This document shows positions 53,537 through 62,582 of a stretch of 64,000 nucleotides of DNA, in pieces. The stretch's first letter is position 1. Each line of letters starts with the position of its first letter. This stretch comes from a virus. Its lineage: Duplodnaviria; Caudoviricetes. The stretch covers positions 47,167-111,166 of IMG/VR virus record IMGVR_UViG_3300033757_000296; one strand, written 5' to 3'. The position numbers were made by a program, and so were the translations under genes. The notes under the pieces are model-generated. The model was not told the DNA's origin, did not search any database, and was given only the letters and a program-made list of their open reading frames with translations.

Positions 53537-53872
53537 GTGGGAGTTTTCAATATGTTGAATATGTTGCTAACCAATCATTTTCCAGAAGAAATACGTAAAG
53601 AAATTGAACTGGACAAAATTAAAGTTACAGAAAAATCATCAATGGGAAACATAACATTAACTGGCAGAGATCCACAAAGAGCCGCAAAAATCAAGATCAA
53701 AAGGGCAAAAAAAGGCGAAGGAACTTATGGTAAAGTTGATAAATCAAAAGGAAGAATTAGTCACTTTCTTTGGGCAACGCTTAATATGCAAGAACCAGAT
53801 CTCTCACGTTTTTTATTAAAAAACGGAAAATCTGGTCCTGGTTATGGATACAATGTAGTGTGGGAATCATGA
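53537..53872 (+). CDS. array family protein
   Basis: NHFPEEI...EGTYG; close paralog of the next gene. Confidence 0.7.
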   Translation: MGVFNMLNMLLTNHFPEEIRKEIELDKIKVTEKSSMGNITLTGRDPQRAAKIKIKRAKKGEGTYGKVDKSKGRISHFLWATLNMQEPDLSRFLLKNGKSGPGYGYNVVWES

Positions 53873-54183
53873 TGTTCAGAAACCATTTTCCAGAAGAAAT
53901 AAACGAAGAAATTGATAAAGGAAAAATTGAAATCACCGAAGTAACTCCGATTGGAATAGTAACAAAGAGTAGTACGGGCTCCCTTTATCACGAAAGAGAA
54001 GTGATGAAAAAGGTAGAAAAAGTTGAAGGAACTTATGGGGAAATAGATCCTAAAACTTTTCGCCATCTATGGAAGGACTTGTTTGTTCTCCCCGCAGTTG
54101 GAGGTAAAATGTGGAATTTCATGAGAAACCACGAAAATGGATTTAGTCCGAATGGTAGTCAATGGACGTGGCAGAGTTGGTAG
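53860..54183 (+). CDS. array family protein
   Basis: NHFPEEI...EGTYGEID. Confidence 0.7.
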   Translation: MGIMMFRNHFPEEINEEIDKGKIEITEVTPIGIVTKSSTGSLYHEREVMKKVEKVEGTYGEIDPKTFRHLWKDLFVLPAVGGKMWNFMRNHENGFSPNGSQWTWQSW

Positions 54184-54484
54184 GCTGGTCGGATTTACCG
54201 GAAATAATGTTTATGGAATATTTCCATGGTCGTGGGGTTCTAGTAACAAACAGAAAGAGCGCCTCGAAAAGAATAAAAGGAACAGTGCGAGAAATTAGCA
54301 AACGAGAATTTATTTGGAAATGTACATATGGGGAGATAGATACAAAAAAAGGGCAAGGCATTTCCCATCAATTATAGACACAAATTATGGAGAAGTACTT
54401 GTAGATTTAATAATGAGGAATGGTCATTTTTGGATATATGATTCGGGATGGCATAGAATACAATGGTCAATGGAGTTTAAATGA
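54162..54484 (+). CDS. array family protein interrupted by a frameshift at an A7 tract (54344-54350)
   Basis: WKCTYGEIDT; the -1 frame continues RARHF...MRN...WSMEFK to TGA overlapping the next ATG. Confidence 0.6.
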
Positions 54485-55241
54485 TGTTTTGGCACTTTTC
54501 ACTTATAAGATGGCGACTAGAACCAGAAGTTAAAGTTTTAAAAACTAGACCAACCAGATTATTTGTTTCGGATAGTCATGAACAAATAGGAGAAGTAATA
54601 GAAATCGAAACAGAATATGGGGGAGTTGAAGAAATAGGTAATAAAACTCATAATCTATGGTTTCTCTCAATAGAACGCCGTTTTGGCCGGGAAATATTTT
54701 GGGCGATGTGGGAATTAGGTGATTGGAAAAAGTTAGAGGGAAAACATCAGTGGAGTCATGTTTATGAATAAAGTTCCACGGGTATGGTGTTTTGGTATTC
54801 CAGATTGGTTTATCGATCTCGTCATGAAAACAAAAGAGGAAAACGTTAAAAGATTTACCCATAATGATGGTCTCGTCGATACTATTTATAAAGCCACAAT
54901 TACGTATGGAGAAGTGGAAAAACGAGAATATGTGAGTATAATGTTTGTAATAATTCGTCGAAATAGTGGGTTTGGCAAAGAATTAGAACACGAAATAACC
55001 ACACAATGGGGTTTGTGTAAAGGACCCGGTGCGGAATCTTGGAAAAAAACGTATGGTGATTAAAAATGGACTGGCTTCATCCAATATTAAGTAATAATAA
55101 ACAATTGTTTATCGAATATTATCGGAAAAAACCAACTAAAACAAAAACAAAAATATGTTGTTTTAGCAGTCATGACTACGATTATGGAGAGGCAACAACC
55201 CCTCTTGTTATTGAATTTGAATTAGTATATGGGGTGGCTGA

Positions 55242-60054: not shown

Positions 60055-60603
60055 GTACACAGTAGATCCGAAATTTTATCGTTTAACAGCCGAGAAACAG
60101 AATCGATATTTTGAAAAATATCGGCAAAGAAGTCGCAGGCTTAGAAATCAATGGAATGAATTAAAATATGCGCGTGGGCTCGATCTCGATTATTTGCAAG
60201 GGATTCCAGAGGTGGATTCGTTTTTCCTCCTCGGCTTTGGAAATTTCGAAGTAGAGGATGGTTGGGCTTGTTATGTGGTGGTGTTCGAATGAGCAGCCCG
60301 GAGTTAATGGAGATTCTGGGGTTTTGGTTTTGGGGCCCGAATTATACTCCTTTGGTTGAGGGGTATTGGGAGTGGCACGGGTCCGAGTACATGTTCCCGG
60401 TTCCGGTGGTTCCGTTTATGAGGCGGGGTTGGGGCCGGATTTATGAGGATGATGGAGGTTTTGTTTACGAAATCACATTTGGGACAGGGGATTCGTTGGA
60501 ATAGGGTTCATCATAGAGTATGGTTTGAGAACGCGCTTCCGTATTTTACGCCGGGGAGGGCAAACGTGTGGAAAAGCAATTCTAACCAGGTAGTAGTGGA
60601 GGA

Positions 60604-61008
60604 ATGAGTATGGAATGGTTTGAATATTTAGGGAAATTGAATCTTGATAATATTTATGTAAAGGGATGGTTTTCGGATAATTTCATCATTAAAATCAGAG
60701 CAGACAAGATGTGGTTCCGCAAAAAATATAAAAACGCAATAGCTATTTGTGGGGTCAAAATAGTCAAAACTTATGGTGCATCATTGAAACATGACATAGA
60801 AGGAAGATGGATTAAGCCATTTGCATTTAGAAATGTTGATGGGGAACCTCTAAGTGGTTCCGAAACACTATTTTATAAGGGGAGATTGATTCCGCTAGAA
60901 ATTGCTCGAGAAATTAACAAAAACAAGGGGTATATCCGTCCTTTCGTCACTCAACCACTACATCAAGATTTAACATATTTCAGAGCAGAGTATGGAGGGG
61001 TAGAATGA
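60604..61008 (+). CDS. array family protein, two domains
   Basis: KTYG...HDIEGRWIKP; IPLEIAREINKNKGYI...AEYG. Confidence 0.7.
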   Translation: MSMEWFEYLGKLNLDNIYVKGWFSDNFIIKIRADKMWFRKKYKNAIAICGVKIVKTYGASLKHDIEGRWIKPFAFRNVDGEPLSGSETLFYKGRLIPLEIAREINKNKGYIRPFVTQPLHQDLTYFRAEYGGVE

Positions 61009-61400
61009 GAGGTCGATTAATACGGTTCGGATCAAATATGTTTTTCAAAGGTAAATCTTATGAATTGCCAATGGAAATTTGGAAAGCAATTAAGGATAGC
61101 AACCGAAATATCGACGAGACCCAAAGTATTTATAAATCCGTACTTTTTATGGAAAGTTATGGGGAGGAAGGGCCCCGCCATGATGAGTCGGGGGATTGGA
61201 TTAGTCCCGCGGATTATACCTTTTTTGGCGGAAAAAAGATAGTATATGAAAAAAATGAGACTTATATTTATTTTGATTGTCGGGTCCCGGATGAGATAAG
61301 GGATGAGTGGATACGGAACCGGGGCCAGATCCGTCAAAATATGCCAGAACCGGGAAAGCATTCGTGTTATTATACTTTTTTCCGGGGGGATTACCGGTGA
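61005..61400 (+). CDS. array family protein, two domains
   Basis: LPMEI...ESYGE...HDESGDWISP; VPDEIRDEWIRNRGQI. Confidence 0.7.
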   Translation: MRGRLIRFGSNMFFKGKSYELPMEIWKAIKDSNRNIDETQSIYKSVLFMESYGEEGPRHDESGDWISPADYTFFGGKKIVYEKNETYIYFDCRVPDEIRDEWIRNRGQIRQNMPEPGKHSCYYTFFRGDYR

Positions 61401-62582
61401 ATTGGATATCTTGTGATGGAGATCTATTGTCTGTTCTTGATATGAAATTAGAAAGGTGGCTGGGACCCGAATTTGTTTCTTTTGTGCACGAAAACGTTTA
61501 CTGGGTTCTACCACACGAAGTCCAACGAGACTGGTTGATTGGATTTGGGGTGGACCTTGTTTTCGGAGAGGCTGATGATTGGGATGAAGCCGGGGAATGG
61601 GTTGATTCAAAAGAATATCGTTGGATTTTTGGAATCACTATCCCCCCGCATCGTTGGAGTGGAAAAATTATTCCATCTGAAATAACATCCGAAATGAGAA
61701 GGGGGAAAGGCGAAATGCCAGATCATGATACAAAGGAGTTTAGAGATAATTTTTTCAGGTGTGTTTATGAGTAAGAGAAAATGGCATTATTGCCATAGAA
61801 GACAAATCTTTGCCATCCCAACGAAACTAAGAATATGGCTTGGTAGTGAATTCGAACCCTTTGTTAATGAAGAAAGATATTGGACTCTCGAAAAAGAGGA
61901 GAAGCCCAATCGTCTTTACGGTTTTGGAGTAACTCTTGTTTTCGGGGAAACCGAGGAATGGTGAGTTTATGATTGAAGTATTAGATGGTAAATATATTTG
62001 TAATCAAGATCCCGCGTTTATTCCCATTTCTCTTTTTGGGAACGAAGTAGCTAGAGAGATTCTTATGGAGAAAGGTGTTTGTTTGAGAAACCGAGATAAA
62101 AATATTCATTTTCCAGAATACCACCATGAGAATTGGTGGATTCATATATATGAGTAAACGTTTACCCATTCTTTTTCAAAAAATTCTGTAAAAATAGCCC
62201 ACTGAATATTTCCACTGCCCACCGTAGATAGAACGCCGGGTGTAACCGTTTCCTTTCCGTTTTAATATTTTTTTTAAGTTAGTAATACTACAATATAACA
62301 GTGTTATATAAGTAATTACTTATGCTTTAATCTTAGAATTAACGATCGTTAATTCCATCACGTGATGATGTTCACAATAGGAGTATATAAAACCGTGAAA
62401 CACGTCACGTAAAACTATAAGTAATTGTGATGATATACACATATGTGTAAATTGGTATGGTGGTGATAAATAAAACATGAATAAGAAATAAGGCAATAAC
62501 TGGCAAGTATGCAGGATCACGGTGAACAGTACGTTTACGGATCAACAATACGTAAAAACGATCGAATCTCAGGAGTAATAGT

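Follow-up and report, generated by a model that had tools for sequence, protein, structure and literature searches.

An operon-like array of at least two orphan mini-gene families in an uncultured, probably PhiF1-lineage myovirus and its turnover at a coding junction motif

We analyzed a 64,000-nucleotide stretch of viral DNA (hereafter the window; positions 47,167 to 111,166 of IMG/VR record IMGVR_UViG_3300033757_000296; Duplodnaviria, Caudoviricetes), which carries a dense array of small genes divergent from the late genes. The array (53552–62157, + strand) consists of ~27 open reading frames (ORFs) of 54–188 aa and one ORF of 418 aa, numbered g01 to g28, which tile 8.6 kb on a single strand; ORF starts were refined from gene calls on identical contigs. 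ORFs overlap at 22 of the 27 junctions, by 1–73 nt, and a Shine-Dalgarno (SD) core (GGAG, GAGG, AGGT, GGTG or GTGA) lies 6–16 nt upstream of 20 of the 28 starts, compared with 5.2 ± 2.0 when positions are drawn at random from the same DNA. The longest overlap, 73 nt, places g09 across the end of g08; g09 is absent from the metagenome gene annotations examined. The intergenic control region upstream of the array contains TATA-like CTTATATA boxes at 53457 and 53480, with one further + strand match inside the array, and the ATG of g01 is preceded by GGAG at 8 nt. A T-rich tract with T8 at 62268 follows the last gene and is likely an archaeal oligo-T terminator. An earlier note, made from the sequence alone, had described Trp-rich genes overlapping stop to start behind one promoter divergent from the late operon, and these points were supported, with TATA-like boxes at the site of the promoter, the Trp content being 3.7% in array products versus 1.3% in late proteins. 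We propose that the array forms one polycistronic, translationally coupled accessory operon.

The array products span isoelectric points from 4.4 to 10.2, and no transmembrane or membrane-type hydrophobic segment was detected in any of them. The GC skew of the array is strongly positive (0.26–0.32), and the GC content falls to ~25% directly after it (window 62200–64000; contig L090, 10200–20189). At least 8 kb of further small + strand ORFs lie downstream, none of which belongs to the families described below (10 kb checked). Neither an Rfam family nor a nucleotide-level tandem repeat was found in the array, and we therefore rejected an RNA array or a recent amplification as its nature.

Sequence comparison suggests that at least two families, both lineage-restricted, are encoded in the array, their members being small, soluble and rich in Trp. 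The family A module reads hP-x-E-I-x-x-E-h-x-K-x-G-x-h ... W-x-C-x-Y-[GE], and an iterated profile converged on 14 ORFs of the window (g01, g02, g09, g12–g15, g18–g20, g24–g26 and g28). In leave-one-out hidden Markov model (HMM) searches against 1336 six-frame segments, 8 of the 11 testable members ranked first (E 1e-6 to 0.02); g18 took third place with E 0.02, the outcome for g09 was borderline, and neither g12 nor g28 passed. Family B, with the module K-IPGW ... G-h-G-[KR]-h-x3-DG-x-W-x-Y-x-h-E-F, comprises about six ORFs (g11 with two modules, the first half of g13, g16, g17, g21 and g22), recovered at leave-one-out E values of 1e-13 to 0.02. A third module type is common to g27 and the N-terminal half of g26 (45% identity), such that g27 and g28 together form a split counterpart of the g26 architecture. 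Six or seven ORFs (g04–g07, g10 and g23) are unclassified, and most of them end in aromatic-x3-[YF]-[GE].

The earlier note had counted about 25 paralogues of a single family. That membership proved too broad, since g08 is an unrelated 418-aa gene, g23 is a doubtful ORF, and the ORF at 58702–58785 is a 27-aa relic. Moreover, the iterated A profile stopped at 14 members and never recruited family B, g04–g07, g10 or g23, and hhalign of A against B was not significant (E 0.21), though the helix-Gly-strand part aligned; the single-family claim was therefore dropped. The profile-profile comparison that the note had proposed gave no significant link between A and B, each of which is supported by its own leave-one-out HMM. 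Other parts of its description held. Diverged tandem paralogues with one or two modules per ORF were recovered, the copies sharing 15–45% amino-acid identity, and the peptides it had quoted are all present (FPEEIRKEI in g01, LPLEIVEELKKNNGKI...WECVYG in g14, YPREICEAISVGAGTV...WTHTYGE in g18, IPLEIAREINKNKGYI in g24 and IPSEITSEMRRGKG...RCVYE in g26). Its claim that neighbours are the closest relatives also stood: all-versus-all blastp clusters (g26/g27, g01/g02, g24/g25/g26, g18/g19/g20 and g16/g17/g22) consist nearly entirely of neighbours, and eight of the nine pairs with E < 1e-3 lie one or two genes apart (distances 1, 1, 1, 2, 2, 1, 1, 1 and 6).

The shared motifs exceed chance by DNA-motif counts and terminal-motif counts as well as by the leave-one-out HMMs. 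A terminal [WFY]xxx[YF][GERNS]x0-4 ends 15 of the 28 array ORFs versus 11 of 369 other six-frame segments of at least 50 aa. At the DNA level, TGG-N9-TAYG is found 16 times on the + strand within the array, compared with five times in the other 55 kb of that strand and six times on the whole − strand. At seven TGG-N9-TATG sites, the ATG contained in TAT-G opens the next ORF (62–188 aa) and GGAG lies 7–8 nt upstream; the FRCVYE junction before g27 has the same arrangement with AGGTG as its SD. The DNA of five WEC[VIT]Y junctions is nearly identical, and their Glu codon is GAG in 5/5 cases versus 33% across the array. No gene follows at nine of the 16 motif copies, among them that of the last gene and internal ones within g10, g15 and g18, which makes the motif a protein feature as well.

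Structure prediction was carried out separately for the two families. The AlphaFold2 (AF2) model of A (g19) has the order strand-helix-helix-helix-strand-(variable helix)-strand, with a mean predicted local distance difference test score (pLDDT) of 75.7 and a predicted template modelling score (pTM) of 0.65, and places the terminal motif in the last, core β-strand. The model of B (g17) consists of three helices and a tight hairpin (pLDDT 67.5). Foldseek searches of the PDB and BFVD returned nothing at E ≤ 0.001 for either model, exhaustive VIA-align reached at best Z 3.5 for A (GNAT and cystatin fragments) and found none at Z 2 for B, and ESM Atlas scores for g19 were 0.83 or less, that is, at chance level. 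As modelled, A and B would be two orphan families with folds that match nothing solved. The idea of a conserved scaffold with variable surfaces, put forward in the earlier note, fits family A in part: its two C-terminal strands are separated by anything from ~8 to 45 residues, around a helix and hairpin that are conserved, and this variable loop length is the only support for a variable surface. One scaffold for A and B together is unproven because the two lack a statistical link, and the fold searches that the note had suggested gave no match for either model.

Comparison between strains revealed how the array changes. Contigs L002 and L003, both from SRR27686861, are 90–98% identical to the window and differ from it by four gene-sized indels over ~8 kb, so that the copy-number variation that the earlier note had proposed to look for is present between strains. 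The first, a 483-bp difference, converts two L002 genes into the fused g10 of the window, in frame, with its breakpoint on TTATGGTGAA, the Y-G-E codons of WTETYGE and WKNVYGE. In the second, L003 lacks g20, whose removal is exact between two copies of the junction repeat TGGGAGTGTGTTTATG. The third, a 397-bp difference at GG(R)GAGG (YGE and FGE codons), yields a g25/g26 hybrid in L003. The fourth is a 324-bp deletion in the window at the non-motif sequence CGGAATT, which leaves the 27-aa relic; here, L003 keeps two intact genes (an extra B gene and another ORF; 254–484 and 465–668). Breakpoints thus fall on Y/F-G-E codons in three of the four indels, with motif DNA making up ~3% of the array, which is far from chance, albeit in a small sample. 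In a further strain (L005 and L006), the WTHAYGE of the g18 homologue is directly followed by an extra A module, of which L003 still has a fragment and the window has less. Divergence between strains is mosaic, adjacent genes differing by either 0.4–2% or 7–20%, as expected if strains exchange segments.

The same comparison with L002 and L003 gave the ratio of nonsynonymous to synonymous substitution rates (dN/dS), which is 0.47 in the annotated frame versus 0.78 and 0.93 in the other two frames. The pooled mini-genes have a value of 0.43, and single genes range from 0.17 to 0.82 where counts allow, with g10, g12, g14, g16, g17 and g22 at 0.55–0.82. The pattern therefore indicates that the mini-genes are real and under weak constraint. 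At g08, dN/dS is 0.06; this gene is under strong purifying selection and is functional in some way, and the operon is therefore not junk throughout. g08 is a candidate ATP-dependent DNA ligase, a lead that comes from predicted features and structure: all ten of its best Pfam-bearing feature matches in the ESM Atlas are ligases (0.90–0.92), and its structure matches a ligase with a template modelling score of 0.62 over ~320 residues. No sequence match to g08 was found in Pfam (including the adenylation domain PF01068), NCBIfam or the PDB.

We then looked for relatives of the array and of the virus. An exhaustive HMM search with family A across 1.84 billion representative proteins gave 16 matches at E < 1e-3. 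Fourteen of these are the virus's own proteins, strain variants, or P0017 from a distant contig; in the other two (1419 and 468 aa), the similarity is confined to short repeated stretches. P0017, the only distant relative found, is encoded on the 1.9-kb contig L004 (ENA ERZ27315067, 1937 bp). This contig, too, is an array, made up of eight mini-ORFs that overlap; five match the A profile built from window sequences and two carry the B signature. L004 has no nucleotide similarity to the window and keeps the protein motifs in A-type (...GWECEYGRI and ...ISWTWTYE) and B-type (...GLGKIELIDGWWWHVLEF) ORFs. Word-indexed searches of 5.8 billion proteins with the A, B and A+L004 profiles found nothing further. 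Among the 28 ORFs, none matched Pfam at E ≤ 0.1 (including AbrB/SpoVT/MazE, PF04014) or PADLOC at E ≤ 0.01; scans of all ORFs against PHROGs and NCBIfam gave nothing usable (PHROGs, one unnamed match at E 0.0034), and the A profile reached at best E 0.09 against PDB sequences. Together with the fold searches, these results agree with the earlier note, which had recognised no family.

The virus appears to be an uncultured myovirus of the PhiF1 lineage, and its host would by this kinship be a member of the Methanobacteriales. Among 50,697 phage records, the terminase shares 41.7% identity with its counterpart in Methanobacterium virus PhiF1 (MK994522) and otherwise has no close match, and the sheath protein has PhiF1 as its sole match (39%). 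Local tblastn gave PhiF1 matches for ~20 window ORFs between 7.4 and 53 kb (about 18 besides these two, at 25–59% identity), with structural genes collinear. Unlike the window, PhiF1 has no member of family A or family B, and other genes and non-coding repeats fill the region divergent from its terminase gene. The phage collection gave no nucleotide match to the window. A terminase search of GTDB genomes gave no match, nor did searches of IMG/VR with g08 and g14, and the sole match to g08 in JGI metagenomes was a 1.3-kb fragment of the same virus. The window DNA is present at 99.8–100% identity in contigs JASEYN, JGI 3300033889 and JGI 3300045909, which derive from one laboratory high-solids anaerobic digester (PMC10793357). 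In the last of these (L091, 99.8% identical to window 51965–64000), g08, g10, g25 and g26 are split or shortened by small indels, which probably stem from mistakes in sequencing or assembly and do not reflect biology.

The best overall explanation of these observations, to which we assign a probability of roughly 0.55, is a coupled accessory operon encoding at least two protein families that may bind host factors and share a motif with three roles. Each module would consist of a few helices followed by a two-stranded hairpin, the last strand ending in aromatic-x3-[YF]-[GE]. The DNA of this strand (TGG-N9-TAT-GGN-GA) encodes the predicted core strand, provides both the SD (GGAG or AGGTG) and the start ATG for the following cistron at seven or eight junctions, and probably serves as short homology for in-frame recombination of modules, by which genes are deleted, duplicated, fused and split. 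The outcome would be a birth-and-death repertoire under weak purifying selection, whose products, as we infer, most probably act by binding host factors, in anti-defence or in host takeover. We are more confident of the operon, the families and the recombination than of this reading as a whole. The host-interaction or anti-defence role, argued by analogy, is possible at somewhat less than even odds; it is suggested by the position divergent from the late operon, the small soluble products and their lineage restriction, the rapid gain and loss, the weak purifying selection, and the absence from the syntenic PhiF1.

Several points weigh against this explanation. The AF2 models were built from 11–14 paralogues and are of moderate confidence only, and A and B could not be joined by hhalign. 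The Pfam, PHROGs, NCBIfam and PADLOC scans and the PDB and BFVD fold searches found no similarity to any anti-defence, takeover or regulatory protein. Early expression is suggested by position, the sole basis for calling the array early. The 100%-identical contigs all stem from one digester study and do not amount to independent conservation, and with two or three comparison strains, each indel can be read as a gain or as a loss. Finally, relic ORFs and truncated modules indicate that part of the array is decaying.

This decay is at the heart of the main rival explanation, according to which most mini-genes are functionless, slowly decaying remnants, either of duplications or of one old gene with many repeats, retained only because packaging limits constrain deletion or because loss would be polar on neighbouring genes. 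It draws on the six genes with dN/dS of 0.55–0.82, on the 27-aa relic, the truncated module at the end of g18 and a relic junction before g24 (TGGAGGAATGAGTATGG, which lies in another frame of the doubtful g23 and provides the SD and ATG of g24), and on the loss of whole genes between close strains. However, the pooled dN/dS lies clearly under the off-frame values, SD sites and start codons are kept at 20 of the 28 genes, and the protein motifs persist in a distant contig without nucleotide similarity to the window. We consider wholesale decay unlikely.

Less probable still is that the products are nucleic-acid-binding regulators, winged-helix-like or AbrB-like, for temporal or host-gene control. 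The predicted order of helices followed by a hairpin resembles winged-helix topology, and hP-x-E-I-x-x-E-h...G resembles the AbrB/MazE pattern 'IPxElr..lgi..Gd', which serves as a lead only. Pfam gave no match even at E 0.1, however, and no AbrB or helix-turn-helix (HTH) chain was matched, the GNAT and cystatin fragments being the best that A retrieved. The AbrB-like resemblance ('IPxEI..G') found no support in the Foldseek and VIA-align searches, in which no AbrB-like chain matched; in the model of A, helices and not a strand precede the P-x-E-I helix. The winged-helix resemblance likewise found no support there: the element order in the models is compatible, but no winged HTH chain was among the matches. 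The putative recognition helix is Glu-rich and the isoelectric points are widely spread, which further speaks against regulators and leaves them improbable.

We also weighed whether the shared C-terminal motif, and with it the supposed family, could be a by-product of the SD and ATG DNA rather than protein homology. The motif does encode GGAG-N7-8-ATG at 7–8 junctions, five DNA copies are near-identical, and the GAG codon bias agrees with such an origin. This explanation is largely refuted and very improbable: nine of the 16 DNA motifs have no ORF downstream, the DNA varies while aromatic-x3-Y/F-G/E stays, the N-terminal PxEI..G.G.I half and parts of family B remote from junctions also contribute to the significance of the HMM matches, and AF2 puts the motif in a core strand. 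The last alternative, that these are internal or ejected virion proteins delivered with the DNA, takes its appeal from small soluble proteins encoded beside packaging genes, and we regard it as the most remote of all, given transcription divergent from the late operon, no counterpart in PhiF1 despite a gene-for-gene syntenic structural module, and free copy-number variation between strains; likewise, 'injected proteins', one of the functions that the earlier note had offered, is the least likely because the genes lie outside the late, structural operon.

Known systems help to place the proposed accessory operon. The hyperplastic regions of T4-type phages contain small non-conserved accessory ORFs together with PeSLs, intergenic cassettes of a promoter and a stem-loop terminator (Arbiol et al. 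2010, PMC2839356; Comeau et al. 2014, PMC4122927). As in those regions, small accessory ORFs are clustered in the array, a short conserved regulatory sequence is repeated between genes, and recombination at the repeats explains gene-sized insertions, deletions and replacements between very close strains; in the array, three of the four indels and one module swap break on motif codons. A promoter and stem-loop terminator cassette was not found, as the junctions overlap coding sequence and the repeat consists of an SD and an ATG. Unlike a PeSL, the element sits inside the coding sequence for the last β-strand of the upstream gene, and because it is so embedded, exchanges occur in frame and also yield fused or chimeric proteins. 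A further difference is that the array genes are paralogues, whereas those of T4 are unrelated ORFans. A bolder proposal would make the C-terminal strand motif a selected three-in-one cassette (structural core, ribosome-binding site with start codon, and in-frame recombination site) with which an archaeal virus could shuffle, fuse and resize binding modules on a new small fold as a combinatorial anti-defence counter-measure; by analogy, it would be the coding-sequence counterpart of the T4 PeSL system, and we hold it to be doubtful, though not far-fetched.

Small early proteins that act on host machinery or defence are also known from the host-takeover module of Bacillus phage SPO1 and from the anti-CRISPR paralogues that Sulfolobus rudiviruses carry in several copies at their genome ends. 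These, like the array, place tens of small proteins in one block, many of them lineage-specific; unlike them, the array has early expression by inference only, and there is no sequence or fold similarity. Gene accordions in counter-defence, as with poxvirus K3L, the amplification of tifA in T4 (Srikant et al. 2022, PMC9391042) and SegB-driven amplification in T6 (PMC13096335), resemble the array in the tandem expansion and contraction of viral accessory genes by recombination, with copy number varying between close lineages. In contrast, their copies are recent and near-identical, with a known function and a defined selection, whereas those of the array are old, at 15–45% identity.

The two families are thus a real, unusual and undescribed pair with a well-supported evolutionary mechanism, and the array belongs to the known theme of hyperplastic accessory regions rather than being a categorically new system. 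It offers a compact natural example of a virus generating and pruning a protein repertoire, and an uncommon instance of a single short sequence under simultaneous constraint as a protein core, a translation signal and a recombination site. To our knowledge, methanogen viruses have barely been characterised, and we know of nothing on how they handle host defences. Should the products turn out to inhibit defences or to act in takeover, they would rank among the first of their kind in viruses of Methanobacteriales, and the junction cassette would provide a testable mechanism for modular gene shuffling within coding sequence. The features of the array and its surroundings are listed in Table 1.

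Table 1 Coordinates of the array genes and of other features in the window.
Feature	Position	Strand	Description
TnpB, first copy	1851–2918		IS605-type
TnpB, second copy	4219–5388		IS605-type
SNF2-family helicase	9744–12494		LAGLIDADG domain inserted at residues 393–458
Terminase	51491–52975	−	
PD-(D/E)XK endonuclease	53032–53430	−	PDDEXK_5, E 2e-15; between terminase gene and array promoter region
Control region	53431–53551	+	Intergenic, between divergent PD-(D/E)XK gene and array
g01	53552–53872	+	106 aa; PEEI...GTYGKVD subfamily (g01–g03); joined to family A by iterated profile
g02	53872–54183	+	103 aa; paralogue of g01 (38% identity, E 4e-14)
g03	54162–54377	+	71 aa; WKCTYGEID motif; weakly related to g01 and g02
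g04	54320–54484	+	54 aa; family B-like, fails leave-one-out; unclassified
g05	54481–54771	+	Terminal W/FxxxY[GE] motif only; unclassified
g06	54764–55063	+	Terminal W/FxxxY[GE] motif only; unclassified
g07	55066–55245	+	Terminal W/FxxxY[GE] motif only; unclassified
g08	55242–56498	+	418 aa; divergent, ATP-dependent DNA-ligase-like (candidate); outside both families
g09	56426–56674	+	82 aa; weak family A, ends WECIYEGN; strong SD GAGGTGAT
g10	56661–57227	+	188 aa; two units, ends WTETYGE and WTYTYG; unclassified
g11	57178–57639	+	153 aa; family B, two modules
g12	57609–57827	+	72 aa; weak family A (in profile, fails leave-one-out)
g13	57799–58194	+	131 aa; family B module then family A module, ends WECTYE
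g14	58187–58375	+	62 aa; family A; start ATG within WECTYE codons of g13
Junction repeat, reference copy TGGGAGTGTGTTTATGGA	58346–58366	+	Other copies at 56648, 58174, 59751 and 60031
g15	58359–58709	+	116 aa; family A; module 2 significant, module 1 weak
Relic ORF	58702–58785	+	27 aa; start of one gene joined to end of another
g16	58775–59002	+	Family B
g17	58983–59219	+	Family B
g18	59206–59532	+	Family A core cluster
g19	59529–59774	+	Family A core cluster
g20	59764–60054	+	Family A core cluster
g21	60044–60292	+	Family B
g22	60289–60504	+	Family B
g23	60449–60607	+	Doubtful ORF
g24	60610–61008	+	Family A
g25	61005–61400	+	Family A, two modules
g26	61397–61774	+	125 aa; third-type N-terminal module (WLGxEF...GFGVxLVFGE) and family A module
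g27	61767–61964	+	Third type
g28	61969–62157	+	Weak family A
T-rich tract	62158–62275	+	After last gene

Beyond the array, a PD-(D/E)XK endonuclease gene separates the terminase gene from the array promoter region. The protein encoded by the two IS605-type TnpB copies has 93–97% identity to elements that occur in multiple copies in Caloramator australicus RC3, C. proteoclasticus and a Deferribacteraceae metagenome-assembled genome. Such a bacterial-type TnpB amid archaeal-virus-like structural genes reflects either a cross-domain transfer of the insertion sequence in the digester or a chimeric assembly. The LAGLIDADG domain within the SNF2-family helicase is possibly an intein or a homing endonuclease insertion.

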